The notes under the pieces were generated by a model. The model searched no databases. It was not told the DNA's origin and saw only the letters and a program-made list of their open reading frames with translations. Below are positions 1 to 15,246 of a stretch of DNA of 32,000 nucleotides, in pieces. Each line of letters begins with the position of its first letter. Positions within the stretch are counted from its first letter, which is position 1. A program made the translations under genes and the position numbers. This DNA is from Cupriavidus necator (GTDB lineage: Bacteria; Pseudomonadota; Gammaproteobacteria; Burkholderiales; Burkholderiaceae), in the NCBI RefSeq assembly GCF_016127575.1, contig NZ_CP066018.1, positions 3,390,001 to 3,422,000 of the forward strand, read 5' to 3'.

Positions 1-736
1 GCCAGACTGTATTGGCGCCAAGGGCGGGCGCATACTCGATCAGTTCAATTAGTGCGTTGCGGAACACCACCTTGCCAGGCGTGCGCGCCACGTCGCGCCC
101 GGGTAGAAATTCCAGCGCGGGGCGCCCCGCAGGCAGCCCAGGCACCTTTGACAACAGCTCACTGGCGTCCTGCAGCCAGTGATGGGCGCCTTGCAGGAAG
201 TTGGCGCCGAAGGTGCTCGAGGCGGTCCTGGCAATGGTCGGATTCATCCACCAAACATTGCCGGGCGCGAGCAGGTCAAGCCATTGCCGGGCGCAGAAGG
301 CGACGATGTGCTGGTGATGACGCGACAGGCCGTCAATATCCTGCGTCAGCGACTCCCAGAAGGCTTCGTTGCGCATGAACGCATCGCGCCAGCAGCGATA
401 AGGCCAGTCCTGCCAGCCGGCATCGGCAAAGCGCTGATCGCTGAGGTCAACGGACGGCGGCTCGGCCGCGGTCGGCAACAGCCGTGGCCAGTCCTCGATG
501 CTGTGCTGCAGCCACACCTGCCATGCCTGCACAATCTTTGCCGGGGAGATGCCGAGCTGCAGCGCCCAGTCGAGTCCGGCCAGACTTGCCGAGATCACCG
601 ACAGGCCCCCGGTGGCACGGGCCAGGCCGGCGCGGATCTGCTTGTCCATCCAGACTTGCGCCGGTATGGCGGCCTGCGGCGCGCATTCCGGCATGGCCGA
701 CAGGCTGGGCGGTGACGTCCTGTCGTCGATCCTCAT
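1..736 (-). CDS. phaC: Class I poly(3-hydroxyalkanoate) synthase, N-terminal ~245 codons; the gene continues past the left edge of the window
   Basis: Absent from the ORF track because it has no stop inside the window. My own minus-strand translation from ATG 736-734 stays open to position 1: MRIDDRTSPP...DLSDQRFADAGWQDWPYRCW...QWLDLLAPGNVWWMNPT...LPGRDVARTPGKVVFRNALIELIEYAP. These match the conserved N-terminal blocks of class I PHA synthases. The ATG overlaps the phaB stop (ATGA, 733-736). Confidence 0.75.
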   Translation of the reverse strand, partial: MRIDDRTSPPSLSAMPECAPQAAIPAQVWMDKQIRAGLARATGGLSVISASLAGLDWALQLGISPAKIVQAWQVWLQHSIEDWPRLLPTAAEPPSVDLSDQRFADAGWQDWPYRCWRDAFMRNEAFWESLTQDIDGLSRHHQHIVAFCARQWLDLLAPGNVWWMNPTIARTASSTFGANFLQGAHHWLQDASELLSKVPGLPAGRPALEFLPGRDVARTPGKVVFRNALIELIEYAPALGANTVW

Positions 737-1479
737 TGCAGGTGTTGCCCGCCGTTGATGGCAAAATTCGCGCCAGTGACGAAGGCCCCGTCGTCGCTGC
801 ACAGGTAAGAGATCAGCGCCGCGACCTCGGCCGGCTTGCCTAGCCGGCCGACCGGGATAGTCGGCAACACGTCCCGCTCGAGGATCTCGGCGGGCATGTC
901 CGTCACCATGTGCGTATCCAGGTAGCCCGGCGAAACGGTGTTGACGGTGATGCCTTTGCGTGCGAGTTCCAGCGCCAGCGCCTTGGTGAAGCCATGTACC
1001 CCCGCCTTGGCGGCGGCATAGTTGGTCTGGCCAAAGGCGCCCCGCGAGGCATTGACCGAAGAAATATTGACGATCCGGCCCCAACCGCGCGCCAACATCG
1101 GCTCAACCAGCGGCCGCGTCATATGAAAGAGCGAGTCGAGGTCCGTGCGCAGCACGAAGTCCCAGTCAGCCTTATCCATCTTGCGCAGGGTCCGGTCGCG
1201 CGTGACCCCGGCATTGTTGATCAGAATATCGACGTCGCCGAGCTCGCTGCGCACTTGCGACACGCAGCGCTGGCAGGACGCGAAGTCCGTCACGTCGACC
1301 GGGAACGCCGTGAATTCGCGGCCGGCGGAGCGTTGCGTGCCGAGCCACTGGGCCACGTGGTCATTGTGTACGGAGTGCGTCACCACGACGCGCGCGCCGT
1401 CGGCCAGCAGCCGCACGGCAATCGCTTCGCCGAGGCCGCCCATGCCTCCCGTTACCAGGGCAATGCGTTGTCCGGCCAT
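733..1479 (-). CDS. phaB: NADPH-dependent acetoacetyl-CoA reductase (short-chain dehydrogenase/reductase)
   Basis: 248-aa SDR with cofactor loop VTGGMGGLG, NNAG, and catalytic YAAAKAG. It resembles PhaB reductases along its full length. GGAG lies upstream of ATG 1479. The gene is flanked by a phasin-like gene and phaC. Confidence 0.9.
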   Translation of the reverse strand: MAGQRIALVTGGMGGLGEAIAVRLLADGARVVVTHSVHNDHVAQWLGTQRSAGREFTAFPVDVTDFASCQRCVSQVRSELGDVDILINNAGVTRDRTLRKMDKADWDFVLRTDLDSLFHMTRPLVEPMLARGWGRIVNISSVNASRGAFGQTNYAAAKAGVHGFTKALALELARKGITVNTVSPGYLDTHMVTDMPAEILERDVLPTIPVGRLGKPAEVAALISYLCSDDGAFVTGANFAINGGQHLQ

Positions 1480-1483
1480 CTCG

Positions 1484-1963
1484 TCAGCTCCGTGACGCGC
1501 CGGCGGGGCGCGCCGGGGCCTTCGCGCCTGGGGTAGGGACGGCCATCAGGCGGCCGACGTTGTCGAACATTTCGCGCGCCGATTCCGCAAAGGGCGCGTA
1601 GCCGCCTCCCTCCACCATGACCCTTTGCTGGTAGTCCTGCCAGGCTTCGGTCGACTCGCGCAGGTGCTCCATGAAGGCCGAGGCCATTTCTATGTAAAGA
1701 CCGCCAATGTCGCGTGCATGTGCGGCGTTGCGCTCGACCTGCGCGGCCAGAATCTGAGCGGGCAGGCCATGGAAGGCGTTCCAGTCTGGCGCATCGTTGA
1801 CGCGGGCGAGCGCCTGCCGGGTGCCTTTTATGTCCTCGTCCAGGGCCTTGAGGCGGAGCCTGAGCAACATCTGGCGCGATTCTTCCCAGCGCAGCCAAAT
1901 GCGCAGGGCGGACTGCTCGGCGCAGCGCGCGAGTTCGAAGGCGGGATCGGTCTGGTCTGGCAT
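1484..1963 (-). CDS. Helical phasin-like protein (function uncertain)
   Basis: Track ORF 1484..2152 trimmed to the internal ATG at 1963, which has GGAG ~7 nt upstream. The 63 upstream codons are Arg/Pro-rich. The 159-aa product is Ala/Glu/Arg/Gln-rich and its stop lies 4 nt before the phaB start. The phasin call rests on composition and position, not on a diagnostic motif. Confidence 0.5.
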   Translation of the reverse strand: MPDQTDPAFELARCAEQSALRIWLRWEESRQMLLRLRLKALDEDIKGTRQALARVNDAPDWNAFHGLPAQILAAQVERNAAHARDIGGLYIEMASAFMEHLRESTEAWQDYQQRVMVEGGGYAPFAESAREMFDNVGRLMAVPTPGAKAPARPAGASRS

Positions 1964-2046
1964 GGAGGAACTCCTATAGTCAAGCGGCTGGCCTGCCCCG
2001 GGGCGCGCAGGTCTGGATAAGTCTAGGAGGGCAACCTTGGCGGGGC

Positions 2047-2060
2047 TTGACGTATCGCAA
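2047..2060. promoter_or_regulatory. Degenerate FNR/FixK-like box TTGAC-GTAT-CGCAA (reads TTGCG-ATAC-GTCAA in phasin orientation)
   Basis: 7/10 match to TTGAT-N4-ATCAA. Centre is ~90 bp upstream of the phasin ATG (1963). It has the same TTGCG-N4-RTCAA form as the box upstream of groEL. Confidence 0.3.
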
Positions 2061-2238
2061 GGAGTGCGCAATGCGTCGGGCGGCGCGCGGCATCGCCAAG
2101 CCGCGCCGGGTTCGTCAGAGCGCAGGGGTCGCATGGCCGGCGGCCTGCGCATTGTGGCCGGACACCCGGAGAGGCAAGGCCGATCAGGAGCCGGGACCGA
2201 GCTGTCCTGCTACATGCCGCGAGCAAACGGGCTTTCCT

Positions 2239-2252
2239 TTGATCCATCCCAA
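2239..2252. promoter_or_regulatory. FNR-like half-degenerate box TTGAT-CCAT-CCCAA
   Basis: Perfect left half-site and 3/5 right half-site. Centre is ~80 bp upstream of the GTG start of the nitroreductase-PRTase-BON operon. With one flanking T it matches the 6201-6215 site at 14 of 15 positions. Confidence 0.4.
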
Positions 2253-2324
2253 ATGGCAGGGCCGGCTTGCCGCCTACGTTAATCCCAGGGGGGCGTTGCC
2301 GACCCCATCGATCCGGAGCACGAC

Positions 2325-2930
2325 GTGACACATCCCATCGTTTTATCCGAAGCCGGCGCGGAATACCTGAAGCTGCCGCCACCGCAGACCGAAGGCGGCA
2401 TGCCGCTGCTGACGGCGCTGCTGCAGCGCCGCTCGACCCGACACTTTGCTGCGCGGAACCTGGATGACACACTGCTGTCGTCCCTGCTGTGGGCGGCTTT
2501 CGGCGTCAACCGCCCGGGCACCGGCCTGCGCACTGCGCCCTCGACCCGCAACTGGCAGGAAATCGACCTGTACGCGGCGCTGCGCGACGGACTGTACGTG
2601 CTTGAACCGGCGGACTGGCGCCTTCGGCTGGTCGTCGGCGCAGACCTGCGCGCGGCGACCGGCCTGCAGGACTATGTTGCCGAGGCGCCATTGAATCTCG
2701 TCTATGTCAGCCGGCTCTCCAGGCTCGATGAGACCGACAAGCCGCTGCGCCAGTTCTATACCGCGCTGGATACGGGGCATATCAGCCAGAACGTTTACCT
2801 CTTCTGCGCCGCGTCCGGGCTGGCCACGGTGGCGCGCGGGCTGCTGGACCGCCGCGCGCTGGCCACTGCCATGCGGCTGGCGCCCGACCAGCGCGTGATC
2901 CTGGCCCAGAGCGTGGGCTATCCGGCGTAA
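2325..2930 (+). CDS. SagB/ThcOx-type nitroreductase-family protein
   Basis: 201 aa. GTG start with GGAG 6 nt upstream. Motifs: LLQRRSTRHF, LLWAAFGVNR, RTAPS, GLYVLEP. C-terminal FMN-fold region: DTGHISQNVYLFCAASGLATV. Paralogue of the 8597..9262 gene. Confidence 0.8.
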   Translation: MTHPIVLSEAGAEYLKLPPPQTEGGMPLLTALLQRRSTRHFAARNLDDTLLSSLLWAAFGVNRPGTGLRTAPSTRNWQEIDLYAALRDGLYVLEPADWRLRLVVGADLRAATGLQDYVAEAPLNLVYVSRLSRLDETDKPLRQFYTALDTGHISQNVYLFCAASGLATVARGLLDRRALATAMRLAPDQRVILAQSVGYPA

Positions 2931-2962
2931 GCCGCCACCCAGGCAGCCAAAGGAGGGGGGTA

Positions 2963-3589
2963 ATGCCATTCATTGACAGGGCCGATGCCGCCGCACAACT
3001 GGCGCGTGCGCTTGCTGGCCACGCAGGAAAACGGCCGCTGGTGCTGGCCGTGCCCCGCGGTGCGGTGCCGATGGGCGCCATCATTGCCGATGCGCTCGGC
3101 GCGGACCTTGACGTCGTGCTCGTGCGCAAACTCGGCGCACCGGGCAACCCGGAGTTCGCCATCGGCGCCGTAGACGAGAGCGGGTGGACCTATCTTACGC
3201 CCTATGCCGCCGCGGCAGGCGCCGACAGCGAATACATCGACCGCGAGCGCGCGGCCCAGCTTGAGGTGCTGCGGCGCCGCCGCGCCGCCTACACGCCGGG
3301 CCGGGAACCGGTCCGCGCCACCGGTCGACAGGTCATCATCGTGGACGACGGCCTGGCGACCGGGGCCTCGATGATCGCCGCGCTGCACGCCATCCGCGAG
3401 CAGAAGCCCGCGCGGCTCGTCTGCGCGGTGCCGGTGGCGCCGCCGCGGACGCTGGAGCTGTTGCAGCCCTATGTCGACGAGGTGGTATGCCTGGAGACGC
3501 CGGCCGGCTTCCGGGCAGTGGGGGAGTTCTACCGCGACTTCTCGCAGGTCGAGGATGCGGAGGTCGTGGCTTGCCTGAAAGGGCGGTAA
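2963..3589 (+). CDS. Phosphoribosyltransferase-family protein
   Basis: 208 aa. Strong RBS AAGGAGGGGGG. PRPP-binding loop VIIVDDGLATGAS. N-terminal RGAVPMG pattern typical of stand-alone putative PRTases found in stress clusters. Confidence 0.85.
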   Translation: MPFIDRADAAAQLARALAGHAGKRPLVLAVPRGAVPMGAIIADALGADLDVVLVRKLGAPGNPEFAIGAVDESGWTYLTPYAAAAGADSEYIDRERAAQLEVLRRRRAAYTPGREPVRATGRQVIIVDDGLATGASMIAALHAIREQKPARLVCAVPVAPPRTLELLQPYVDEVVCLETPAGFRAVGEFYRDFSQVEDAEVVACLKGR

Positions 3590-3614
3590 AGACACGCACA
3601 AGCGGGGGGCACCC

Positions 3615-4271
3615 ATGAAGGGCGACAGGCAGCTGCAGCAGGACGTGACCGAGGCGCTGATCTGGGATCCTGCGGTCCATGGCAACGAGATCGGGGTCCA
3701 GGTCCAGGACGGCGTCGTCACGCTGACCGGGCACCTTGGAACCTTTGCCGAGAAGTACTCGGCGGAAGCGGCCGTCAGGCGCATTCCCGGCGTGCGGGCG
3801 CTGGCCGTGGAACTGGACGTTCACCTGCCCGACGATGCGCGCCGCACCGATGCCGACATTGCCCGGGCCGCTGCCAACGTGCTGTCCTGGGATGCGACGG
3901 TGCCGGCCGACCGTATCCGGATCCTGGTCGAACACGGCGTGGTGACCCTGAGCGGCGATGTCGACTGGTACTACCAGCGCACCGCCGCCGAGCACGCCGT
4001 GGCCGGACTGTTCGGCGTGGTCGGGGTCACCAATGCGCTCGCCATCCGGCCTCGTGCCGACAAGCAGGACGTGGCGGCACGGATCCAGGCGGCCATCGCA
4101 CGCCAGGCTGCCAGCGACGCCGACCAGGTAACCGTGACGGTGAGGGATGGCGCGGTGACGCTGACCGGCACTCTGCGCACGCTGGCCGAGCGCGAGGCGG
4201 CATTCGAAGCGGCCTGGTCTGCACCGGGCGTCAGCGCGGTCGTCAACCAGATCGAAGTCAGGCCCGGCTAG
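3615..4271 (+). CDS. BON-domain protein (OsmY-like, three BON repeats)
   Basis: 218 aa with three repeats of the BON pattern (VQVQDGVVTLTGHL, ILVEHGVVTLSGDV, VTVRDGAVTLTGTL). Each repeat is followed by a ...AE.AA..IPGV..V.N.I.V-type segment. Confidence 0.85.
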   Translation: MKGDRQLQQDVTEALIWDPAVHGNEIGVQVQDGVVTLTGHLGTFAEKYSAEAAVRRIPGVRALAVELDVHLPDDARRTDADIARAAANVLSWDATVPADRIRILVEHGVVTLSGDVDWYYQRTAAEHAVAGLFGVVGVTNALAIRPRADKQDVAARIQAAIARQAASDADQVTVTVRDGAVTLTGTLRTLAEREAAFEAAWSAPGVSAVVNQIEVRPG

Positions 4272-4290
4272 CTCAGGCCTGCACCGTTGC

Positions 4291-5928
4291 TCAGTATTCT
4301 TCGCCGAACATCGACGACCCCGTGCGCATGCCGGCATCGCCCTGGCCGGCGGGGCTGCGCTGAATCGCGATCATGCAGTCCGTCGTCAGCAGCAGGGAGG
4401 CGATCGACACGGCATTTTGCAGGGCCGTGCGTACCACCTTGACGGGGTCGATCACGCCGAGTTCCAGCATGTCGCCATAGCGCTCGGTGCCGGCGTCGTA
4501 GCCGAGCGTGCCCGAGCCGACGCATACCTGGTGCACCACTGCGTCGGCATCCGCACCGGCGTTGGCGGCGATCTGCCGCATCGGCGCGGCCAGTGCCGCG
4601 TGGACGATGTGGCCGCCGGCGGCCTGCTCGGCGTTCGGTGCCTGCCAGGCTTCGAGGGCAGCGCGGGCGCGCAGCAGCGCAACGCCGCCGCCGGCGACGA
4701 TGCCTTCGTCCACCGCGGCGCGGGTGGCGTGCAAAGCATCCTGGAAGCGGTTCTTGCGCTCGTGCAGCGCGCTCTCGGTGGCCGCACCCACCTTGATCAC
4801 AGCCACGCCGCCGGCCAGCCGGGCCAGGCGCCGCTGCAGCGCCTCACGCTCATAGTCCGAGCGCACCTCGTCCAGGCGCAGGCGCAGGGCGGCAATGCGC
4901 TCGGCCACGCGCGGGCGTTCGTCACCGGAGCCGATCAGGGTGGTGGTGTCCTTGTTGACCTCCACGCGGCGGGCTTCGCCAAGCTGTTCCAGCGTGACGT
5001 GCTCGAGCGAGATGCCGGCCTGCGGTGAGACCACCGTGGCGCCGGTCAGCGCGGCCAGGTCGCCCAGCTGCTCGGTGCGCGAGTCGCCGAAACCCGGTGA
5101 CTTGACTGCGCAGCTCTTCAGCGCGCCGCGCAGGTTGTTCACCACGAGCGTGGCCAGGGCCTCGCCCTCCACATCGTTGGCGATGACCAGCAAGGGCCGG
5201 CCAGCGTGGCTCACGGCCTCAAGGACCGGCAGCAGTTGCGCGATGGCGGCAATGTTCGCGTCGCACAGCAGCACCAGCGGCGAATCCAGCACGACGGCAC
5301 GGCTCTCGTTGGTCGCGAACAAGGGCGAGAGGTAGCCGCGATCGATCAGCGCGCCGTCGGCGATGTCGAGTGCGTCGTCCAGCTTGGAGCCATCCTCCAC
5401 GCTGATTGCGCCATCCTTGCCGACCCGCTCGACAGCCTGCGCCACCAGCGTGCCGACGGTCTGGTCGCCGCTGGCCGAGATGGTGGCGATCTGGCGCATC
5501 TCGCCGGTACTGCTGCAGGGCCGGGCGCTTTCCAGCAAGGCGCTGGCGACCAGCTTGCCGGCGGCCTCGATGCCGCGCTTGAGTTGCATGGGGTCGTGGC
5601 CGGCTTCGACGTATTTCACGCCCTCAGCCACGATCGCGTGGGCCAGCGTGGTCGCAGTGGTGGTGCCATCGCCAGCGATCTCGCTGGTGCGCACCGCGGC
5701 CTCGCAGAGCAGGCGGGCGCCCATGTCGGCGAACGGATTGGCCAGCGTCACCGACTTCGCCACGACCACGCCGGAATTGGCGACCAGCGGCACCATGTCG
5801 GGCCGCTCCACGATCACGTTGCGGCCTCCCGGGCCCAGCGTGACCTTGACCGCGTGGGCCAGTTGTTCCACGCCGCTCAGCATCATGCGGCGCGCGCCTT
5901 GGTGGAAGATAAGTGTTCTGGCAGGCAT
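4291..5928 (-). CDS. groEL: Chaperonin GroEL paralogue (no adjacent groES)
   Basis: Track ORF trimmed to ATG 5928 (GGAG upstream). 545 aa with AGDGTTTAT, VKVTLGPGGRNV and GGGVALL motifs. The C-terminus ends ...GMRTGSSMFGEEY instead of a GGM repeat tail. Confidence 0.9.
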   Translation of the reverse strand: MPARTLIFHQGARRMMLSGVEQLAHAVKVTLGPGGRNVIVERPDMVPLVANSGVVVAKSVTLANPFADMGARLLCEAAVRTSEIAGDGTTTATTLAHAIVAEGVKYVEAGHDPMQLKRGIEAAGKLVASALLESARPCSSTGEMRQIATISASGDQTVGTLVAQAVERVGKDGAISVEDGSKLDDALDIADGALIDRGYLSPLFATNESRAVVLDSPLVLLCDANIAAIAQLLPVLEAVSHAGRPLLVIANDVEGEALATLVVNNLRGALKSCAVKSPGFGDSRTEQLGDLAALTGATVVSPQAGISLEHVTLEQLGEARRVEVNKDTTTLIGSGDERPRVAERIAALRLRLDEVRSDYEREALQRRLARLAGGVAVIKVGAATESALHERKNRFQDALHATRAAVDEGIVAGGGVALLRARAALEAWQAPNAEQAAGGHIVHAALAAPMRQIAANAGADADAVVHQVCVGSGTLGYDAGTERYGDMLELGVIDPVKVVRTALQNAVSIASLLLTTDCMIAIQRSPAGQGDAGMRTGSSMFGEEY

Positions 5929-5997
5929 GAAAAACTCCGCATTGACAATCAGTGGGTCGGGCTTGCTACTACGGTAGTTGCCGTGCAGGTCCGCACG

Positions 5998-6011
5998 TTG
6001 ATGCAACGCAA
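5998..6011. promoter_or_regulatory. Degenerate FNR/FixK-like box TTGAT-GCAA-CGCAA (TTGCG-TTGC-ATCAA in groEL orientation)
   Basis: 8/10 match. Centre is ~77 bp upstream of the groEL ATG 5928. Confidence 0.35.
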
Positions 6012-6215: not shown

Positions 6216-6446
6216 GTCGATGGCCGCGCAGGCGCATAGCTTTAACAGTGTGAACGCGCCCCGTCGTCAGCACGACTAAGGAAATGCAACTGGCGCGGGA
6301 CATCGGCAACCCCATCCAACATGCCTGCGGGGAGCGCTGACGATGGACCTCGGCATCGCCGAGACCGAACTGAACGTGCACTGGCACAGGACGCGATGGT
6401 GGCGCGGCCGTTGGCAAGGACAGGAAGAGGGGGGAAGGGAAGTCTC

Positions 6447-7115
6447 ATGGAGCACATCACCATCGAACAGGTGCGGATCCATATCGGCGACATCGCGCTG
6501 CCAGGCGACCTTACCCTGCCGGAAGCGGCATCCGGCCTGGTCCTGTTCGCACATGGCAGCGGCAGTTCGCGCTACAGCGTGCGCAGCCGCGGGGTCGCAG
6601 CGACGCTGAATCGGGTGGGCCTGGGCACGCTACTGTTTGACCTGTTGGCGCCGGACGAGGACGCCGGGAGGTCGAAGCGATTCGACATCGCCCTGCTCGG
6701 GGAACGCCTCAAAGCTGCCACGGTCACGGTCGCGCACCTGACGCGCGATCGCCACCTGCGGCTCGGCTACTTCGCCGCCAGTATGGGGGCTGCCGCGGCC
6801 ATCCGTGCCGCCGCTGAGCCGCCGCCGCGCATGCGGATCGACGCGGTGGTGGCGCGCGGAGGCCGCGTGGACCTGGCAGGCCACGAGGCGCTGCGCCAAC
6901 TGCAGTCCCCGACGCTGATGATCGTAGGCGAAGCGGATCCGGTGGTGCTGAAGCTCAACGCGCGCGCCACCGCATGGATGCAATGCGAGAAGCGGCTGGA
7001 GGTGATTCCCGGCGCTACTCACCTGTTCGAGCAGCCGGGTGCGCTGGAACAGGTCGGCGAGCTCGCCGGAAAATGGTTCTGCCAGCATTTTGCAGCGGCT
7101 GGCGGGAACTTGTAG
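6447..7115 (+). CDS. Alpha/beta hydrolase, dienelactone-hydrolase-like
   Basis: Track ORF 6321..7115 trimmed to ATG 6447 (RBS GGAAGGGA). 222 aa. Motifs: LVLFAHGSGSSRYS, nucleophile-elbow-like YFAASMGAAAA, and C-terminal IPGATHLF histidine motif. Confidence 0.75.
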   Translation: MEHITIEQVRIHIGDIALPGDLTLPEAASGLVLFAHGSGSSRYSVRSRGVAATLNRVGLGTLLFDLLAPDEDAGRSKRFDIALLGERLKAATVTVAHLTRDRHLRLGYFAASMGAAAAIRAAAEPPPRMRIDAVVARGGRVDLAGHEALRQLQSPTLMIVGEADPVVLKLNARATAWMQCEKRLEVIPGATHLFEQPGALEQVGELAGKWFCQHFAAAGGNL

Positions 7116-7178
7116 TTCGACAGGATTTCCATGGTGCCGTGCGATGCACGGCGATGACTCAGTGAAAAGGAGAATGAA

Positions 7179-7511
7179 ATGAACGATACTCGCGCCGCGC
7201 TCTTGCCGCACAAGGAAGCACTAGCCCGTGATGCCAACACGCTGTTGGCGGATGTACAGGCATTGTTGCGGGATGTTGCCGACGAAGCCGGCGTGGAGAC
7301 CGCGCAGGCACGCGCGCAGCTGAGCGCACGCCTGCACGCGCTCCAGGGCCGCCTCGCCGAGCAACGCCAGGCGGCGCGCATGCGTGTCTCGCAATGGGCC
7401 GACACCACGGATCGCTACGTCCACGCACATCCCTGGGAGAGCATGGGCTCCGTCGCCGCTGTCGCGGCCGTGGCTGGCGCCCTGGTCGCGCTGGCCGTCA
7501 CCCGCCGTTAG
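7179..7511 (+). CDS. DUF883 / ElaB-YqjD-like membrane-anchored stress protein
   Basis: 110 aa. RBS AAAGGAGAA. Long helical N-terminal part, then HPWESMGSVAAVAAVAGALVALAVTRR, the typical C-terminal tail anchor of the ElaB/YqjD/YgaM family. Confidence 0.8.
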   Translation: MNDTRAALLPHKEALARDANTLLADVQALLRDVADEAGVETAQARAQLSARLHALQGRLAEQRQAARMRVSQWADTTDRYVHAHPWESMGSVAAVAAVAGALVALAVTRR

Positions 7512-7542
7512 CGCGGGCACGGCAGGCAGGCTGCTGCAGCCA

Positions 7543-7847
7543 GTGGCCGGTTGCGAAGCCATGGTCGTGTGCACGCTGGACCGTCCGGATGCCAGGCTGG
7601 TGCCGCTGCTGTGGCCCGCTGCCGCAGCCAGGGAAGGTGGCGCCGTGCGGGTCGGACTGGTGGCGCCATACCTCGCGTACATGCGCCAGGACAAGCTCTT
7701 CCCGACAGGCTGCAAGCGGTCGCGGCCGACATTGTCACGTGCGACACCGTTGCGCACCCATCCAACCGCATTCCCGTAGCAGAGCGCCTGGCAGCCGGCA
7801 TCCGGCTGGCACTCCAGGCGCCAGCGGGTTCAGGAGATCCGTCATGA
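7543..7847 (+). pseudogene. prs: Ribose-phosphate pyrophosphokinase (Prs) remnant: N-terminally truncated and internally deleted
   Basis: One frame reads VAGCEAMVVCTLDRPDARLVPLLWPAAAAREGGAVRVGLVAPYLAYMRQDK (7543-7695). This is the Prs signature; compare E. coli VRGGDIFIIQS...[22 protein letters not shown]. From ~7710 another frame reads AADIVTCDTVAHPSNRIPVAERLAAGI, corresponding to the Prs C-terminal ...VVVCDTIP...LAEAI. About 200 central codons are missing. The stop overlaps the next gene's ATG (ATGA, 7844-7847). Confidence 0.6.
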
Positions 7848-8206
7848 ACAAGCTCACAGCGCAGGAAACCGTCTCGCTGGCGGCGCAGCTTGACGCGGAC
7901 GAAGCGCGCATCCATGCCGCCGTTGGTTCCGCCGACACGCCGATGACACCATTGGCGCAGCGTGAGGCGCGGGACGAGGGCGACCTTGCCGACGAAGAAA
8001 TCCTGCAGCGGCAGGATGATGCGATGCTGGAACACTACCGCATGCAACTGGCCGACATCGCCGCCGCGCGGGCGCGGATGCAGCACGGCCAGTACGGCAC
8101 CTGCATCGATTGCCAGCAGCCGATCCCGTTCTCGCGCCTGCAGGCATATCCGACCGCGAAGCGCTGTACCGCATGCCAGCGCCGGCACGAGCAGCTTTAT
8201 GCGTGA
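7844..8206 (+). CDS. DksA/TraR-family C4 zinc-finger protein
   Basis: Track ORF 7394..8206 trimmed to ATG 7844 (RBS CAGGAGA). 120 aa. Coiled-coil N-terminal part, then CIDCQQPIPFSRLQAYPTAKRCTACQ (CxxC-N17-CxxC). Confidence 0.85.
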   Translation: MNKLTAQETVSLAAQLDADEARIHAAVGSADTPMTPLAQREARDEGDLADEEILQRQDDAMLEHYRMQLADIAAARARMQHGQYGTCIDCQQPIPFSRLQAYPTAKRCTACQRRHEQLYA

Positions 8207-8308: not shown

Positions 8309-8551
8309 CTAGCGCAGGTCGTACTCGCGCATCATTTCGGTCGTGACTGCCTTGACCGTGGCCAGGCATGCCGGCGGGACAGCGGGGAAGGCGTCGATGG
8401 TCCAGTTGCAGCCGCCGTTGGCAGTTGCGTCGACACGCTGCGGCAACGGGATGTCGCAGTCGCGGCAGGTGTCGCCGAGGTCGGCGTTTTCCTGCAGACG
8501 CCGCAGAATTTCATTGCGGATCTGTTCCGCACTGCCGAGGTTCTTGATCAT
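8309..8551 (-). CDS. Hypothetical 80-aa protein with four Cys
   Basis: AGGAGA lies 7 nt upstream of ATG 8551, and the gene starts 45 bp downstream of the nitroreductase on the same strand. Its composition is non-repetitive and unlike the Arg/Pro/Ala-rich shadow ORFs. Cys sites: CRDC, GGCNW, PPAC. I recognise no family. Confidence 0.6.
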   Translation of the reverse strand: MIKNLGSAEQIRNEILRRLQENADLGDTCRDCDIPLPQRVDATANGGCNWTIDAFPAVPPACLATVKAVTTEMMREYDLR

Positions 8552-9262: not shown

Positions 9263-9444
9263 GGGAGCTCGCATTTGTTGCAAAGAGCGGCGCGAGCGCT
9301 CTGCGCATGGCACCGGTATGGACGAATGTAGGCGCTGCCCCCGGCCGTGGATTGCGCTCCGTCAAGCAGCGTCGATGGGGCCTTCCCTGGTGTGAAAGCA
9401 AGGGGTGCTGGCGCTGCTTTAGATGGCGGCGCCGAGCTCTGGCG

Positions 9445-11016
9445 TCAGCCGCAGCCGGGTGCGGCGGGGCCCGTAACGCTGCCCGGCGAGGCGACGCAGG
9501 CACGCTCGGCTTCGGTCAGCGGCTCCTGGACACGCATCTGCCACGCCAGCACGCCGTCGTCGGCATCCGACAGGTCCCCGCCCGCCCGGGCACGCGCGGC
9601 GATGCGGGCGCGCAGCGTCTCAGGGCTGGCTTCGCAGGTGACGATGGCGAAGGGCACGCCAAGGCGGCGCGCCTGGGCAGCAAAGCGTTCGCGCTCGGCG
9701 CGGACCAGGAAAGTCGCGTCGGCAAGCATCGGGAACCCGGCGCGGCAGCCGAGCCGGCAGACCGCGAGCAGGCGTCGGTAGGTCCGTGCCGTTTCGCTCG
9801 CGGCATACCAGCCACCCGCGGGCATCACGCCGCGGTGCAGGCCCTTGCGTACCGCGTCGGAGCGTACGCGTACCATCGACCCGGCCTCGCTCATCTGTGC
9901 CGCAACCGTGGACTTGCCGCTGCCGGACAGGCCATGCATCAGCACCATCGGCCCGCGACGGCGGCTGAGGCATCGCCATGCCAGCGCAAGCAGCCTGCCT
10001 GCCTCGGCCTGCGCCGGCGCCATGGACGCGCCCGCGGCGTGCTTCTGGCAGCCGCGCTCCAGCAGCACGCGCGCGCGCACCAGGGCCCGCATGGCGAGAT
10101 AGAAGGGCAACACGGCCAGCGCGCCGTAGTCTCCCGACTGCTCCAGGTAGCCGTTGAGCAGCCGGTAGGCCAGCGCCGGTCGGCCATGGTGCAGCAGGTC
10201 TATGACCGGGAAGGCCAGGTCGCTGATGGTGTCGGTCCAGCGCAGGGCGGCGTCGAACTCCAGGCAGTCGAATGGGGTCGGCACGCCGTTCAGCAGCACG
10301 ATGTTGCCCAAATGCAGGTCGCCATGGCACTCGCGTACATGGCCGTTGCGCAGGCGTGCCCGGAACGCATCCGTCAGCCGGGTGGCCTCGCTGCGCGCCC
10401 GCAGGGCCACGCGGCTGGCCAGGTGCGTGGCCGACGTCAGCCGGCCAATGCCGCCCAGGCACTCCGCAAGCGTCGCGTCGATGCGGGCCGGCGTGCCAAA
10501 GCTATCGGAAGGGGCGGCAGGGGGCTGCGCCTGGTGAAAGGATGCAATGCTGCGCGCCAGCGCATCGATATGGCCCGGCTCCAGCCGGTCCGCAACGATT
10601 CTTGCGCTGAGCAGGTCTTGCTGGTCGAAGCGCCGCATCCGGACCGCATGCTCGATCGGTATGCCGCCGCCACCGATGCGCACCGAGCCGGGCGTGGGGC
10701 CCGCCAGGATCGGCACCACATCCAGATACAGGGCAGGTGCGAACCGGCGGTTCAGGCGTAGTTCGGTCTCACAGTCGTCGCGGCGTGCCTGCGCGGTGGA
10801 GAAGTCGACAAAGTCGAACCGCACCGGCTTGCGCACCTTGTAAGCAAAGTCCCCGGCCAGGAAGACACGGGAGATATGCGTCTCGATGACCTGTACTGCC
10901 GGCGCCGGGTGGGGGTAGGCGTCCGGCTGCTGCAAGGCGGCCATCAACGCCGCGTCGTCCCATTGACTTTCCATGTCCCTTGCCGCCTGCGCCCTTGCGC
11001 TGTTGTGAACTGCCAC
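9445..11016 (-). CDS. Bifunctional APH-like phosphotransferase / P-loop (AAA_33-like) kinase fusion protein
   Basis: 523 aa. The N-terminal ~330 aa form a protein-kinase-like fold (IETHISRVFLAGDFAYKVRKP, catalytic HGDLHLGNIV). The C-terminus carries Walker A GLSGSGKST. The track start 11016 is a GTG; ATG 10974 is an alternative. Confidence 0.8.
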   Translation of the reverse strand: MAVHNSARAQAARDMESQWDDAALMAALQQPDAYPHPAPAVQVIETHISRVFLAGDFAYKVRKPVRFDFVDFSTAQARRDDCETELRLNRRFAPALYLDVVPILAGPTPGSVRIGGGGIPIEHAVRMRRFDQQDLLSARIVADRLEPGHIDALARSIASFHQAQPPAAPSDSFGTPARIDATLAECLGGIGRLTSATHLASRVALRARSEATRLTDAFRARLRNGHVRECHGDLHLGNIVLLNGVPTPFDCLEFDAALRWTDTISDLAFPVIDLLHHGRPALAYRLLNGYLEQSGDYGALAVLPFYLAMRALVRARVLLERGCQKHAAGASMAPAQAEAGRLLALAWRCLSRRRGPMVLMHGLSGSGKSTVAAQMSEAGSMVRVRSDAVRKGLHRGVMPAGGWYAASETARTYRRLLAVCRLGCRAGFPMLADATFLVRAERERFAAQARRLGVPFAIVTCEASPETLRARIAARARAGGDLSDADDGVLAWQMRVQEPLTEAERACVASPGSVTGPAAPGCG

Positions 11017-11071
11017 CTCAACTGCAGCCTCGGCACGCAGACTCCGGCTGCCAACTCGCCCCCGCGGTGCC

Positions 11072-11554
11072 CTATGCCGTCACGTCGGCCAGATCCTGCC
11101 CCAGGATGCCCGCCGCGCTACAGAGTACGCCCACGATAGCCAGCAGTGCGCGCCACGGGTGGCTCAGCAGCGCCTCCACTTGCTCGCTGCGGCTCTCGCC
11201 AGACAGGCACCAGATGCAGAAGTGCTCGCAGTTGTTGGTAAGAAGGCGGTAATCGTCCTCTCCAAGCCGCGCAGTCGCGCGCCGTACGATCTCCGCCTCG
11301 ACGTACCTCGCTTGCGTGGCCGGCTCGACGCGAAAGCCGTAGCCGCCGGCAAAGCCGGCGAGGGTGGTCTTTTCGACGGGGCCGCAACGCAGGAAACCTT
11401 TGAACCCGACATAGTGCACCACCTCGCCGTTGCCGACATAAATGCCGTGGTGGACATAACCACGGCGGTCCGTCTTCAGATGCGCGCCAAGAGGAATGTC
11501 CGCGGAGATTGCCGCAAGGCGCTGTGCGTGTCCGATGTGGTGATCGTCGCTCAT
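11072..11554 (-). CDS. LRAT / NlpC-P60-like (H-RAS-like suppressor family) protein with C-terminal TM helix
   Basis: 160 aa. RBS AAGGGGAA. Catalytic His context HHGIYVGNGEVVH, catalytic Cys in NCEHF, and hydrophobic tail ALLAIVGVLCSAAGIL. Confidence 0.75.
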   Translation of the reverse strand: MSDDHHIGHAQRLAAISADIPLGAHLKTDRRGYVHHGIYVGNGEVVHYVGFKGFLRCGPVEKTTLAGFAGGYGFRVEPATQARYVEAEIVRRATARLGEDDYRLLTNNCEHFCIWCLSGESRSEQVEALLSHPWRALLAIVGVLCSAAGILGQDLADVTA

Positions 11555-11875
11555 CGCTTTTCCCCTTGTTGCCTTTGTTGTGCTGGTCGCTCCTGCCCCG
11601 GTGGTCCCGGTTTTCCTGCCGATGAGGGCAACCGTGTGCCCCGTGTATGCCTGCAGTATCGTTGCCGGCCGGCGACGCCGAAATCAGCCGGTTCCGAAAA
11701 ACGTGTCGGCTTGCTGCCATGCAGCTTGTACGCGCATCGCGACGGCGCTTGTCCGCCGTTCGCACCGGGCTGTCAGCGGAACCTGACAAGGGCGCGGCGG
11801 TATAACCCGATATTTCCCAGCCATTGTGGAGAGGAGGGACATTCACCCTGCGTTGGCCGGTGACTTCGGCGATCG

Positions 11876-11889
11876 TTGACAGGCATCAA
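11876..11889. promoter_or_regulatory. Near-consensus FNR/FixK box TTGAC-AGGC-ATCAA
   Basis: 9/10 match to TTGAT-N4-ATCAA. It lies in the 448-bp divergent region, with centre ~120 bp upstream of the lipoprotein ATG 12003 and ~330 bp from the LRAT ATG. Confidence 0.55.
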
Positions 11890-12002
11890 CCCGTATGTCC
11901 GGCCGGACGCTACCTTCCGGTAACCGAAGATCACCGCCACTACGGGCATTTCAATGCGTTGTCGGAGGGACGAAACTGGAGATTACGTGGAGCTTTGTAC
12001 GC

Positions 12003-12476
12003 ATGCTCTCGTCCCTGATGATTGCCGTAGCTGCTGCGGGTTGTGCGTTCCGCTATGGGCAAGCCGGATCATACTTGCAGCCAATGGCCGAATATGGCGT
12101 CTCGTATGTGTCGGGCGGGGACAGCGAAGCCGGCATGGACGCGATGCTCGCCATCGCGGACCGCTTCAACGTACGTCTGACCATGGTGGACGCCGCACGC
12201 GGGGACCCGCTGCCGGATGCTGCCATCCTCGTGTCCAGTCAGGACGGGCGCTCGATATTGCATGCGAGCGCAACCGGGCCGATGTTCTATCTCCGGCTTC
12301 CCACGGGCGTCTATTGGCTGGCAATTGGTTATCAGGGCTGGGTCCGGACCCGCGATATCGCCGTCGACGGCCAGGCACTCGACATGACGTTTCGCCTGCC
12401 CGTGAGGACGCTGGAGGACGACTGGCTGCTTTGCAGCTCGCCGCGCGGCAACGTCGCGGTTACCGCCGTCTGGTGA
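12003..12476 (+). CDS. Putative lipoprotein with carboxypeptidase-regulatory-like beta-sandwich
   Basis: Track ORF 11895..12476 trimmed to ATG 12003 (GGAG ~10 nt upstream). Lipobox-like IAVAAAGC. The pattern MFYLRLPTGVYWLAIGYQGWVRTRDIAV...MTFRL resembles CarboxypepD_reg-type domains. The n-region has no positive charge, so the start and lipoprotein status are uncertain. Confidence 0.5.
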   Translation: MLSSLMIAVAAAGCAFRYGQAGSYLQPMAEYGVSYVSGGDSEAGMDAMLAIADRFNVRLTMVDAARGDPLPDAAILVSSQDGRSILHASATGPMFYLRLPTGVYWLAIGYQGWVRTRDIAVDGQALDMTFRLPVRTLEDDWLLCSSPRGNVAVTAVW

Positions 12477-12521
12477 CGCCATCTCAGCTTCGCCATCAAT
12501 TACCACCGTCGGCGCAGAACG

Positions 12522-14822
12522 TCACTCCGTGGGCGCATCTTCGCGCAGCGCATGGAACAGCTCGTCCTCCTGCGCGCAGTGCAGCCGCAATACGGCCTCG
12601 AGCCCGTAGAGCAGCCGCTGGTACTCCCTGACCCTGCCGGCGTCTGGCCCATCCGGCGGTGAGTCGTCCGCCATCCGCTGCAGTAGCCGGATCACCCGGA
12701 AGATCTCGCGGTGCATCGCGCTCATCGCCGCCAGCGGATCCTCGCCTCCGACCAGCAGCGCGAGTTGCGGATAGAGCTGCGCGTCATCGTGCTGTTCGTG
12801 GGGCAAAAGTGTTCCGCTGAGGGATGCGCACAAGCGGCGCAGTTCCGTGCCCGCGGCGTGGCCAGGCATGGCTGGCAACCTGTCCGCGAGGCTGCGGATC
12901 TGTTCCATCAGCGGCGCCAGCGCGGCGTGCTCCTGGTTCAGGCGCTCGGCGTCGGCCGTGGACAGGCGTTCCGCCGGCACCGACGGGTCGGCGCGCAGGG
13001 CGCGCAGCGCATTGGCAATGACCAGCACATCGATGACCTCCTGCAGCATGGCGCCGGCCAGTGGCGGCAGGTAGCCGAACGCGGCGACCGCCATCGCGAC
13101 GAACGACAGGCCCATGCCGGCCATGGCGCTTTGCACGGCCAGCCGGCGCGACCGGCGGGCGATGCGCACCGCGTCCACCAGCCGGTCAAGCCGGTCCACC
13201 AGCAGCACGACATCCGCGGCTTCCGACGATGCCGCGGCACCTCGTGCGCCCATGGCCACGCCGACGTCCGCGGCGGCCAGCGCCGGTGCATCGTTCACGC
13301 CGTCGCCCACCATCAGCACAGTGCCGTCGTGGCGCGCCGCCTCGATCGCGGCAAGCTTCTGCGAGGGGGTGAGGTTGGCATGGACCTCGGTCACGCCCAG
13401 CATCGCGCCGACGGTCTCGGCGACGTCGAGCCGGTCTCCCGTGAGCATGGCCAGGCGCCGTATGCCCGCCTTGCGCAGCAAGCGCAACGCGCGCGGGGTG
13501 TCCATGCGAATCAGGTCCACGAACTGCAGTGCCCCAACCAGCACGCCGTCGACGGTGACCAGCGAGACCGAGGCGCCTTCGAAGGCCGCGCGCTGCAACA
13601 TGGCCTGGCACCACGGTGGCCCGGCATCGCCGCCGCCGGCAAAGGCGGGCGATCCCACCGCCACCACGTGCTCGCCAACCCGCCCGGCAATGCCAGCACC
13701 GGCGGTCTCGGTCACGCCTGACGGCAGGTCCAGGGCCAGGCCTCGCTCGCGCGCCGCGGTCGTGATGGCTTCGGCGACAACATGCCCGGAGGCCTGGGAC
13801 AGCGAAGCGGCGACGCGCAGCACGTCGGGCGCCGGCCATCCGGGCGCGCTCTCGATGGCCGCCAGGCGGGCCCTTCCGCCCGTCAGCGTCCCGGTCTTGT
13901 CGAAGAAGAGGATGCTCGCCTGCGACAACCTTTCAAGCGCGCCGCCGCCCTTGACCAGCACGCCGCGCCCGGCGCAACGCGACACCCCGGACACAATCGC
14001 CACCGGAACGGCCAGGATCAACGGACAAGGGGTGGCGACCACCAGCACCGCCAGCGCCCGCGCGAGTTCACCACTGGCAAGCCAGGCAAGCCCGGCGACG
14101 AGCAGGGTGACAGGCACCAGCCACAGTGCATAACGGTCGGCCAACCGCGCCGCGGGCGGGCGCTCCGCGCGGGCGGTGCGCACCAGCCTGGCGATGCCGG
14201 CGAAGGTGCTGTCTGCCGCGGTGGTCGCTGCCACCATCTCGAACGGGGTGCCGGCGTTCAGCACACTGCTGCGCACGGTCTCGCCAGGGAGTCGCTGCCG
14301 TGGCAGCGACTCGCCAGTCAGGGCAGATTCGTCCAGCGTCGCCTGGCCCAGCAATGCGCCGTCCACGGGTACGACTTCGCCATGCCGGACCAACAGGCGA
14401 TCCCCCGGACTGACCACATCGAGGGAAACCGCGCGCCATTCTCCGTCCTCGAAGCGGTTGGCGGACTGCGGGGCGCGGCTGAGCAGGGCGGACATCTCCC
14501 GCTCGGAACGGGCCTGCGCATAGTTCTCAATGGCCCTGCCGCTCTCGATCATCAGGGCCAGTACGGCAGCCGCGAGGAATTCGCCAAGCGCCAGCGCCAG
14601 CCCGATCGCCAGCAGCGCCAGGACATCGACGCCCGCTTCCTTCCGGCGCAGCGACCGCACGATGGCGACGATCAGCGCGCCGGCGACGACCAGCGCGCCA
14701 ACCGCCCAAGCGAGCCTCGCGGCGAGCGCTTCGCCGAAGGCAAAAAGCAGCAAGCCAGCGCCCAGCGTGCCGGCCGCGACTGGCAGCAAGCCGAGGTCAA
14801 ACTTGCGAAACCCGATGTGCAT
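12522..14822 (-). CDS. P1B-5-type heavy-metal P-type ATPase with C-terminal hemerythrin (HHE) domain
   Basis: [17 protein letters not shown], and transmembrane TPCP (VVATPCPLILAVP) instead of CPC. There is no N-terminal metal-binding domain. The last ~150 aa carry His/Glu hemerythrin motifs (NQEHAAL, LPHEQHDD, MHREIF, LHCAQEDELFH). Start placed at ATG 14822 (CAGGGGA upstream); the track start 14933 is a GTG without an RBS. Confidence 0.85.
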   Translation of the reverse strand: MHIGFRKFDLGLLPVAAGTLGAGLLLFAFGEALAARLAWAVGALVVAGALIVAIVRSLRRKEAGVDVLALLAIGLALALGEFLAAAVLALMIESGRAIENYAQARSEREMSALLSRAPQSANRFEDGEWRAVSLDVVSPGDRLLVRHGEVVPVDGALLGQATLDESALTGESLPRQRLPGETVRSSVLNAGTPFEMVAATTAADSTFAGIARLVRTARAERPPAARLADRYALWLVPVTLLVAGLAWLASGELARALAVLVVATPCPLILAVPVAIVSGVSRCAGRGVLVKGGGALERLSQASILFFDKTGTLTGGRARLAAIESAPGWPAPDVLRVAASLSQASGHVVAEAITTAARERGLALDLPSGVTETAGAGIAGRVGEHVVAVGSPAFAGGGDAGPPWCQAMLQRAAFEGASVSLVTVDGVLVGALQFVDLIRMDTPRALRLLRKAGIRRLAMLTGDRLDVAETVGAMLGVTEVHANLTPSQKLAAIEAARHDGTVLMVGDGVNDAPALAAADVGVAMGARGAAASSEAADVVLLVDRLDRLVDAVRIARRSRRLAVQSAMAGMGLSFVAMAVAAFGYLPPLAGAMLQEVIDVLVIANALRALRADPSVPAERLSTADAERLNQEHAALAPLMEQIRSLADRLPAMPGHAAGTELRRLCASLSGTLLPHEQHDDAQLYPQLALLVGGEDPLAAMSAMHREIFRVIRLLQRMADDSPPDGPDAGRVREYQRLLYGLEAVLRLHCAQEDELFHALREDAPTE

Positions 14823-15246
14823 GGCGAACCCGATCCCCTGCGTAACTGGCGCCGGTTGCTGGGATACTCCCGCTGATGCCTTCAGGCGATCGCAGATCCT
14901 GCCGCGCTGGCGGCTGCGCAATCCCGGCTGCACGCCGAATCAGGCACTGTGTAATGGTGATGTTAGTCCAACAGGCACCGGGCCGATAATAGCCTCGGCC
15001 GCAGGCAGGGCGCGCCAGCCAGCCCTGGAGATAGTCGATGGCTGCAGGGGCCGCGGTTCGCGGCGCCACGGAGATGATTCGGCACGGCGCGGACCCGCAG
15101 TGGCTGTCGGCGGTACTGCCGTATTCGCTCACTCCTTGATGCACGCGGCGATTACGGCGCATTTTCGGTTCAAATTGCGCTTTGGCCGGTGCCGCCCTAT
15201 ATATTTGGGGGGCGAGAAGCACTCTCAGACAATCATCGTCCATTCC

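Follow-up and report, generated by a model that had tools for sequence, protein, structure and literature searches.

What kind of locus fills the left part of a 32,000-nucleotide stretch of Cupriavidus necator DNA (assembly GCF_016127575.1, contig NZ_CP066018.1, positions 3,390,001 to 3,422,000; the whole stretch is called the window here)? An initial annotation had read bases 1-14933, block 1, as a counterpart of two hypoxia systems, the DosR regulon of Mycobacterium tuberculosis and the low-oxygen-activated (lxa) locus of Burkholderia cenocepacia. Block 1 encodes two nitroreductases (NTR1 and NTR2), a phosphoribosyltransferase (PRTase), a dienelactone-hydrolase (DLH)-type hydrolase, a fusion of an aminoglycoside phosphotransferase (APH) domain with a P-loop domain (the double kinase), a BON protein, a GroEL paralogue, polyhydroxyalkanoate (PHA) genes and a cation ATPase. 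Genes were called by codon-position G+C and identified by sequence searches of Pfam, NCBIfam and PDB, and every gene of the earlier inventory was recovered by one of these searches (Table 1). With moderate confidence, I favour the view that block 1 makes up the right-hand part of a low-oxygen survival locus of the lxa type, one which would be controlled by a regulator of the FNR/Anr type and which is decaying in this strain.

Recurrence of the gene set and its likeness to the lxa locus

Is the grouping of these genes a matter of chance? The double-kinase gene was used as the anchor for a neighbourhood comparison, and it was found that the gene set recurs around it in Cupriavidus, Ralstonia, Paraburkholderia, Burkholderia, Rhizobium, Streptomyces and Rhodococcus. 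Thus, the grouping is not due to chance. The C. necator-type loci (L002-L004) carry genes for a universal stress protein (USP), a P1B-5 ATPase, an LRAT protein, the double kinase, a nitroreductase, an 80-residue open reading frame (ORF), DksA, an intact phosphoribosyl pyrophosphate (PRPP) synthetase (Prs), ElaB and the hydrolase, together with a 63-residue ORF, an FtsH-like protease, an erythromycin esterase, GroEL, a nicotinate phosphoribosyltransferase (NAPRTase) and BON. The locus of Cupriavidus sp. KK10 (L001), which is 93-97% identical to that of the window, has the same content. Immediately to the left of the point where the window starts, it carries four USP genes, the phosphoenolpyruvate synthase (ppsA) and acyl-CoA synthetase (acs) genes, a flavodoxin-like gene and a DUF1488 gene; a paralogue of the putative lipoprotein of Table 1 was found among these USP genes.

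More distant loci share parts of the set. A Ralstonia locus (L010) has genes for Prs, an RNase J-like nuclease, Hsp20, LRAT, FtsH, a ribosome hibernation factor, a nitroreductase, an alcohol dehydrogenase, the hydrolase beside the PRTase, a P2 ATPase, a GerE-type regulator with a PAS-HisKA_3 kinase, a CRP/FNR protein, BON and DksA. The regulator trio of this locus reappears in other Cupriavidus (L009, L011) with USP, Hsp20 and phasin genes. On Paraburkholderia phytofirmans pOLGA1 (L007), BON, nitroreductase, Hsp20, USP, alcohol dehydrogenase, cydABX, PhaC-like, Pta, AckA and P-type ATPase genes are found. A Rhizobium leguminosarum plasmid (L015) carries CBS, USP, FtsH, MgtA-type ATPase, Hsp20 and BON genes, a Rhodococcus plasmid (L016) PDH, AcsA, PfkB-family kinase, PpsA, CBS and USP genes, and a Streptomyces fungicidicus plasmid (L008) many USP genes, Hsp20, an Acg-sized nitroreductase, NAPRTase, two P-type ATPases and BON.

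The proposed homology to lxa-type loci was borne out. The locus of Burkholderia sp. FXe9 (L017) is gene-for-gene collinear with BCAM0276-0294 (Sass et al., Table 4), and window proteins are 40-63% identical to its products (NTR2 54%, NTR1 47%, BON 45%, PhaB 63%, double kinase 40%); similar identities were obtained with the pOLGA1 locus. In B. cenocepacia, the lxa locus responds nearly exclusively to low oxygen among nine conditions (PMC3721108). The lxa locus (BCAM0275a-0323, PMC3721108) and the window have in common a nitroreductase, a BON protein (annotated there as "phospholipid-binding"), an acetoacetyl-CoA reductase, a PHA synthase and a cation ATPase; BCAM0277 is described there as "conserved hypothetical". 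The lxa locus further carries a CRP/Anr regulator and a two-component pair (BCAM0287-0289); of such a set the window has only the kinase, and related loci have all three genes. In contrast to lxa, the window is without genes for USP, Hsp20, acetate kinase/Pta, alcohol dehydrogenase, class II ribonucleotide reductase and ribokinase. Instead, it has the PRTase, the DLH-type hydrolase, GroEL, ElaB and DksA, to which its relatives add Prs, NAPRTase, an FtsH-like protease and an erythromycin esterase. It also differs in that its ATPase is a P1B-5 pump with a hemerythrin domain, its copy is eroded, and its oxygen response is a prediction.

How far does the likeness to the DosR regulon go? The parallel between lxa and DosR was already drawn by Sass et al. 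in 2013 (PMC3721108), and the Anr, Lxa and DosR regulons were compared in a 2025 review (PMC12071387). A literature search returned no relevant Cupriavidus or Ralstonia low-oxygen study of these genes, nor a paper on the cluster in Cupriavidus. For M. tuberculosis H37Rv, a Mycobacterium metagenome-assembled genome (L006) and the Streptomyces plasmid island (L008) served as stand-ins. The former was retrieved from genome contigs with a degenerate hspX pattern, which also returned an Actinomycetota metagenome-assembled genome. The Mycobacterium locus carries three USP genes, PfkB, a 681-residue PRTase-erythromycin-esterase protein and HspX, which is the Rv2028c-Rv2031c arrangement. Each half of the 681-residue protein has its own counterpart: the N-terminal half matches the PRTase of the window (46% identity, E 9e-35), and the C-terminal half matches the erythromycin esterase of the C. 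necator-type relatives (51%, E 7e-117). In the Streptomyces island, the matches are to the NAPRTase of the relatives (48%) and to the double kinase of the window (33%, E 7e-33). Thus, one part of the DosR comparison stands: a TT1426-type PRTase domain as in the Rv2030c-type protein beside hspX, the esterase of the relatives, the NAPRTase, a double kinase of the Rv2004c family, and the HisKA_3 kinase and GerE regulator classes are shared. The other part does not: Acg-type nitroreductases, a CtpF-type pump and the DosR box are missing, the sensor domains of the window are predicted to be PAS-haem and not GAF-haem, its PRTase and hydrolase are separate genes and not fused, and its control is probably by FNR.

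Table 1. Features of block 1 and of the adjoining DNA (window coordinates; the strand is given as a dot for promoter boxes).
Feature	Position	Strand	Remarks
phaC, class I PHA synthase, 5' part	2-694	-	PhaC_N and PHBC_N (Pfam); ATG at 694; truncated by left window edge
phaB-like acetoacetyl-CoA reductase (short-chain dehydrogenase/reductase)	733-1479	-	adh_short, E 7e-59
Phasin-like protein, 222 aa	1484-2152	-	start codon uncertain; 33% over 148 aa to Phasin_2 gene of L011
Asymmetric FNR-like box TTGATCCATCCCAA	2239-2252	.	divergent promoter phasin-phaBC / NTR1-PRTase-BON; centre 80 bp upstream of NTR1 start; identical in KK10
Nitroreductase 1 (NTR1), 201 aa	2325-2930	+	PF00881; PDB 3HJ9/3HOI/8CQS
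Stand-alone PRTase-like protein, TT1426 family	2963-3589	+	best PDB match TT1426/1WD5, E 1e-49
Triple-BON (OsmY-like) protein	3615-4271	+	PF04972 three times; 44-47% to BON proteins of L007, L010, L017
GroEL paralogue	4291-5928	-	TIGR02348, 654 bits; no adjoining groES
Asymmetric FNR-like box TTGATGCAACGCAA	5998-6011	.	76 bp upstream of groEL start; kept in L003 and L001
Erythromycin-esterase remnant, last 36 codons	6052-6159	-	tblastn, 72% identity; gene intact in relatives
Asymmetric FNR-like box TTGATCCAGCCCAA	6202-6215	.	upstream of hydrolase operon; identical in L001-L004
DLH-type serine hydrolase	6321-7115	+	best PDB match 2O2G "dienelactone hydrolase", E 8e-55; possible start 6447
DUF883/ElaB-like membrane-anchored stress protein	7179-7511	+	PF05957 and PF19029
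prs (PRPP synthetase) pseudogene	7528-7841	+	residues ~40-98 and 259-303 left, in different frames; two deletions and a frameshift
DksA/TraR-type C4 zinc-finger protein, 120 aa	7844-8206	+	PF01258; equal length in L002-L004
Conserved 80-aa ORF	8309-8551	-	same position in L002-L004; no family match in Pfam
Nitroreductase 2 (NTR2), 238 aa	8597-9313	-	PF00881; PDB 3HJ9, E 1e-127, nearly identical
Double kinase, APH and AAA_33 fusion	9445-11016	-	Pfam; probable start 10971
LRAT/NlpC-P60-type protein	11072-11554	-	PF04970, E 1.5e-28; kept in L002-L004 and L010
FNR-type box TTGACAGGCATCAA	11876-11889	.	one mismatch; intergenic; kept in KK10 at 30446
Putative lipoprotein, CarboxypepD_reg-like domain	11895-12476	+	probable start 12003, ahead of lipobox AAAGC
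P1B-5 ATPase with hemerythrin tail	12522-14933	-	probable start 14822
Membrane histidine kinase, two FixL-like PAS domains and HisKA_3 core	15274-16971	+	adjacent to block 1; orphan; two transmembrane segments
PPK2	20756-21559	-	family search

The genes of block 1 form two groups on the plus strand, NTR1-PRTase-BON (2325-4271) and hydrolase-elaB-prs pseudogene-dksA (6321-8206), and a run on the minus strand from the ATPase through LRAT, the double kinase and NTR2 to the 80-residue ORF (14933 down to 8309). Two promoters are divergent, one between phasin-phaBC and NTR1-PRTase-BON and the other between groEL and the hydrolase operon. Pfam and NCBIfam searches gave no family match for the phasin-like ORF. 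Bases 1-14985 are 93% identical to KK10 plasmid p1 and 94% identical to a C. necator megaplasmid; the replicon of origin is a Cupriavidus secondary replicon. The G+C content is 0.66-0.72 in block 1 and falls to 0.56-0.62 at 15-28 kb. Rfam and tRNA scans of the window gave no matches. At the right end (28498-31998, minus strand) lie methylcrotonyl-CoA carboxylase alpha-subunit and carboxyltransferase genes, which are high in G+C, housekeeping, and unrelated to the locus.

Promoter boxes and the neighbouring sensor kinase

Which regulator would control the locus? The window was scanned for the FNR box consensus TTGAT-N4-ATCAA at up to one and up to two mismatches. At one mismatch or fewer, four boxes were found where 0.13-0.6 were expected, of which the one at 11876 is the only one in block 1. 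At two or fewer, nine of the 14 boxes are intergenic, while intergenic DNA makes up only 15% of the window. The boxes at 2239, 5998 and 6202 have two mismatches each, are intergenic and lie 76-112 bp upstream of start codons; all three combine a perfect FNR left half with a non-FNR right half, giving TTGAT-N4-CCCAA or CGCAA. These three and the 11876 box are conserved in KK10 and the C. necator-type loci. The asymmetric form TTGAT-N4-C(G/C)CAA also occurs in the KK10 locus at 4841, 14238, 19388 and 23563, and a perfect FNR box precedes the operon of FtsH, erythromycin esterase, GroEL and NAPRTase in the relatives. For boxes with one mismatch or fewer, the count is two to six in every beta-proteobacterial relative, where about 0.1 would be expected, and zero in the actinobacterial loci. 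The published lxa motif, TGA-N6-TCA, is itself Anr/FNR-like (Sass et al. 2013, PMC3721108). In contrast, the DosR box TTSGGGACTWWAGTCCCSAA has one match in the window, with three mismatches and inside a coding region, where 0.65 were expected, and none of note in the beta-proteobacterial relatives.

If the favoured reading is right, an FNR/Anr-family regulator encoded elsewhere would bind the TTGAT-N4-ATCAA-like boxes upon oxygen depletion. This would turn on four or five operons: phasin-phaB-phaC, NTR1-PRTase-BON, groEL, hydrolase-elaB-(prs)-dksA, and ATPase-LRAT-double kinase-nitroreductase-orf80. The first may provide polyhydroxybutyrate (PHB) as a sink for reducing power. Jointly, the products may serve redox balance, the protection of proteins and membranes, and the retuning of RNA polymerase by the DksA/TraR-type protein. 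The P1B-5 pump would export Fe2+ or Ni2+, and its hemerythrin tail may sense oxygen, the redox state or iron. The scheme resembles the systems of Anr in Pseudomonas aeruginosa and of FixLJ-FixK in rhizobia and the Burkholderia cepacia complex (PMC12071387) in its TTGAT-N4-ATCAA logic and in the FixL-like haem-PAS domains of the adjacent kinase, and a cluster of double kinase, FtsH, Hsp20, BON and USP genes also lies on the R. leguminosarum plasmid. Unlike those systems, block 1 is without respiratory genes (cbb3, denitrification), and the core of the kinase is HisKA_3 and not the HisKA of FixL.

This kinase gene, directly to the right of block 1, raises a different possibility. A 408-bp tandem duplication (15520-16301, 1.9 copies, 79% matches) has given it two near-identical PAS domains, while the homologous kinases of the relatives are much shorter (368-448 aa). 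The best PDB matches of both PAS copies are the FixL haem domains and DosP, and the core matches DesK, DevS and DosT. A histidine in the motif RAAHxEHVRRF, aligned by eye, presumably sits at the position of the proximal histidine of FixL, and the domains may bind haem. The kinase has counterparts in L009-L011 (65-79% identity), where a GerE-type regulator and a CRP/FNR gene accompany it. Could the locus then be under DosRS-like two-component control, in which the haem-PAS/HisKA_3 kinase acts through a NarL/GerE-type regulator on the asymmetric TTGAT-N4-C(G/C)CAA sites? The FixL/DosP-like PAS domains on a DesK/DevS/DosT-like core, the GerE-type partner in L009-L011, and the identical departure of three of the four block-1 boxes from the FNR palindrome speak for it; since the regulator gene has been lost, the circuit would be broken in this strain. 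I consider it unlikely, because the left half of the asymmetric boxes is a perfect FNR half-site, canonical palindromic boxes predominate in the related loci, KK10 keeps the boxes and has no such kinase at that position, and the DosR-box signal is absent.

Is oxygen the signal at all? In enterobacteria, elaB, BON/osmY and dksA belong to general-stress regulons, and the RpoS regulon of Escherichia coli includes osmY and elaB. Block 1 might be an island for general stress in growth arrest or stationary phase, governed by RpoS or the stringent response, for ElaB, an OsmY-like BON protein, a DksA-like protein, a chaperonin, a phasin and PHB genes are typical general-stress and storage functions. 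However, the FNR boxes are enriched and conserved, the haem-PAS kinase and the hemerythrin domain point to oxygen, and the homologous B. cenocepacia locus responds to little else than low oxygen among the nine conditions (PMC3721108). Control that is not specific for oxygen is therefore judged improbable.

Several observations, besides the enterobacterial membership of elaB, osmY and dksA just mentioned, weigh against an FNR-controlled lxa-type locus. Only one block-1 box is near the consensus, and the other three might serve another regulator; the operon from the ATPase to orf80 has no recognisable box in the window. USP and Hsp20 genes, which are hallmarks of lxa, are not found within the window, and tblastn of the window found neither a response regulator nor a CRP/FNR gene, while regulator, kinase and CRP/FNR gene are all present in L009-L011 and L017. 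The comparison with lxa was made through the FXe9 and Paraburkholderia loci as stand-ins for B. cenocepacia J2315. Finally, I infer the preferred oxygen control by an FNR/Anr-type regulator from sequence motifs.

FNR boxes also occur to the right of block 1. Block 2 holds a set on the minus strand (22021-26106) in which genes for DUF2933, ICMT-like methyltransferase and DUF5676 proteins come after the one for a YHS-domain P1B ATPase; a perfect FNR box TTGATTTCAATCAA lies at 26189-26202, 83 bp upstream of the set. This block has a lower G+C content and three of the four best FNR boxes of the window, and it adjoins block 1 also in C. necator NZ_CP068436.1. A gene for a secreted Met/Gly/Pro-rich protein with (MGPG)n repeats (17282-17842, minus strand) has a perfect FNR box TTGATTGGGATCAA at 17908-17921; its product has no Pfam match and looks like a periplasmic metal-binding protein, putatively under oxygen control. 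An archaeal-type S-adenosylmethionine synthetase gene, here found in a betaproteobacterium (26347-27531, minus strand; PF01941, E 2e-129), has an FNR-like box about 100 bp upstream (27631-27644).

The predicted PRTase-hydrolase pair, the kinase and the pump

What do the individual proteins do? The PRTase has an intact PRPP loop, VIIVDDGLATGAS, and the hydrolase, in which AxSxG and the Asp and His are conserved, has an intact Ser-Asp-His triad. In M. tuberculosis, Rv0571c is a PRTase fused to a DLH-like domain. A full-library search with the PRTase gave 14,546 cluster representatives. Among the closest (47-59% identity), there are PRTase-DLH fusions (P0125, P0141), fusions in the reverse order (P0183, P0220), a PRTase-HAD fusion (P0152) and CBS-DUF2267-PRTase fusions (P0161, P0178, P0241). 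The hydrolase of the window shares 51% identity (E 3e-52) with the C-terminal hydrolase half of P0125, and 42% with the N-terminal one of P0183. A 447-residue PRTase-family protein of C. basilensis (P0278) shares a 90%-identity cluster with P0210. In the Ralstonia locus, the PRTase and hydrolase genes are adjacent. Since they are fused in other bacteria, the PRTase and the DLH-type hydrolase are predicted to form a functional pair by the Rosetta-stone argument.

It had also been suggested that the PRTase, a Prs remnant and a nitroreductase belong to a PRPP-consuming pathway of a new kind. This is half explained. The intact relatives carry Prs and NAPRTase, and thus ordinary Preiss-Handler NAD salvage, by which NAD would be sustained; in M. 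tuberculosis, NAD salvage is under DosR control via PncB2, a NAPRTase. The explanation does not extend to the PRTase-like protein itself. With prs a pseudogene and NAPRTase lost, little of the PRPP theme survives in this strain. A bolder reading, which I regard as doubtful, is that the PRTase and its partner hydrolase may be the two parts of one enzyme, at work in a PRPP-dependent pathway of salvage or modification that is yet to be discovered and that would be a common core of bacterial hypoxic dormancy programmes from Mycobacterium to Burkholderiales. The partner would vary, being DLH-type here and erythromycin-esterase-type, HAD-type or CBS-DUF2267 in fusions elsewhere. The enzyme, with the Rv2030c and Rv0571c types included, would act with a dedicated Prs, NAPRTase and the double kinase, and the cross-phylum identities of 46-51% would reflect the horizontal spread of one "dormancy toolkit". 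In the Ralstonia locus (at 1-716 and 1035-1976), a thymidine/AMP-phosphorylase-like gene (Glycos_transf_3) lies beside DUF1488, Prs and RNase J-like nuclease genes, which is compatible with a nucleoside-to-PRPP salvage theme.

The nitroreductases had been likened to Acg of the DosR regulon. Acg-type enzymes are double-domain proteins of about 330 residues. Both window proteins are short and of the 3HJ9 type, with 3HJ9, 3HOI and 8CQS as their only PDB matches, and tblastn of both against the 331-residue Acg-sized nitroreductase of the Streptomyces island gave no match. Thus, they are not Acg-type. NTR1 is 47-48% identical to the nitroreductase beside BON and Hsp20 in L007 and L017, and NTR2 is 54-57% identical to those of L007, L010 and L017.

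The double kinase belongs to a family of more than 7000 relatives, named [quoted passage not shown] by NCBI. Its motifs HGDLHxGN (in the APH/choline-kinase-fold domain) and GLSGSGKS (in the P-loop AAA_33 domain) are invariant in 24 homologues. Its AlphaFold model (pLDDT 92) has two predicted kinase domains; the modelled N-terminal half resembles MTR kinase, APH(2''), maltokinase, N-acetylhexosamine kinase and choline kinase, and the C-terminal half resembles the P-loop kinases APS kinase and PSTK. Rv2004c has weak streptomycin phosphotransferase activity (PMC8701281). In M. abscessus, its orthologue adjoins a nitroreductase and a USP gene in the predicted core DosR regulon (PMC10034137), and the adjacency of kinase and nitroreductase is present in the window too. 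Some homologues of 870-915 residues (P0045, P0067, P0083 and others, e.g. from Casimicrobiaceae) carry an additional domain of about 370 residues.

The cation ATPase is not a CtpF/P2 pump. It scores 500 bits on TIGR01525 (P1B heavy-metal), above the cutoff, and far below the cutoff on all P2 models. It has TPCP at residue 301, DKTGT at 345 and a C-terminal hemerythrin domain (PF01814, 663-795) with HRE at 741 and HALRED at 794 as HxE and HxxxxD ligands. From these motifs and this domain, it follows that it belongs to the P1B-5 class of Sinorhizobium meliloti Nia (motifs per PMC9388753). The characterised members, Nia and the Acidothermus cellulolyticus enzyme, have the same TPCP and a hemerythrin-like C-terminal domain with HxE and HxxxxD (PMC9388753). 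In contrast to them, the window ATPase is embedded in an lxa-like cluster, and its substrate and sensing role are predictions. Over 674 residues that take in the hemerythrin tail, it shares 51% identity with a heavy-metal ATPase of the Streptomyces island. What had been noted as a CtpF-like fragment comes down to a 24-residue TM2-like string at about 17043-17114 with no significant alignment, the sole hint of a P2 pump that was lost.

Does a heavy-metal pump make block 1 a metal homeostasis or resistance island of a metal-adapted Cupriavidus, with the other genes as passengers? Block 2 has a YHS-P1B ATPase, an ArsR regulator, a Met-rich periplasmic protein and PPK2, and the closest record of the same layout comes from heavy-metal-contaminated soil. 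However, determinants of the czc, cop, mer and ars kinds are missing from block 1, the P1B-5 pump accompanies USP, Hsp20 and NAPRTase genes even in Streptomyces, and FNR boxes mark even the metal genes of block 2. A metal island is thus very unlikely, and a low-oxygen survival locus remains the preferred reading.

Decay of this copy and its meaning

Block 1 has decayed in part. Its prs gene survives as a pseudogene, those for NAPRTase, the FtsH-like protease and the erythromycin esterase have been deleted, and the neighbouring kinase is left without its response regulator. The Prs remnant noticed initially was confirmed as this pseudogene, and L002-L004 and L010 have an intact Prs of 303 residues. 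Compared with KK10, about 1.4 kb holding the NAPRTase gene is missing between BON and groEL. Upstream of groEL, the loss amounts to about 4.4 kb and takes in an FtsH-like gene, a PolX-like gene and the greater part of the erythromycin-esterase gene. A 270-residue ORF (7394-8206) was considered as a Prs-DksA fusion and rejected, since the Prs pieces lie in other frames. The PolX-like gene (HHH_8, HHH_5, DNA_pol_B_palm) lies between the hydrolase and FtsH-like operons of KK10 (22242-23531 of its locus) and is absent from the window and the C. necator-type loci. A second case of decay is a collapsed FtsH-like gene (21603-21962, minus strand), directly downstream of PPK2, of which only N-terminal and M41 C-terminal pieces remain.

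The additions to the published picture are the P1B-5 identity of the pump and the non-Acg identity of the nitroreductases, an FNR-type promoter architecture with an asymmetric box, and the pairing of PRTase and hydrolase. The most useful new point is the predicted Rosetta-stone link between these two, which would tie Rv2030c- and Rv0571c-type proteins to tractable proteobacteria. Among the many DosR-regulon and lxa proteins without known biochemistry are the nitroreductases, the BON proteins, Rv2004c, Rv2030c and Rv0571c. Members of these families stand in FNR-box-marked operons of Cupriavidus and Ralstonia, which are easily grown and manipulated and could be tractable models, and the occurrence of the PRTase and the hydrolase in split and fused forms provides a concrete pairing for in vitro work. 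In Cupriavidus biotechnology, oxygen limitation is the condition of PHB production, and a second phaBC set that responds to oxygen could matter there. To judge from the decay of this copy, some lineages may do without the module.

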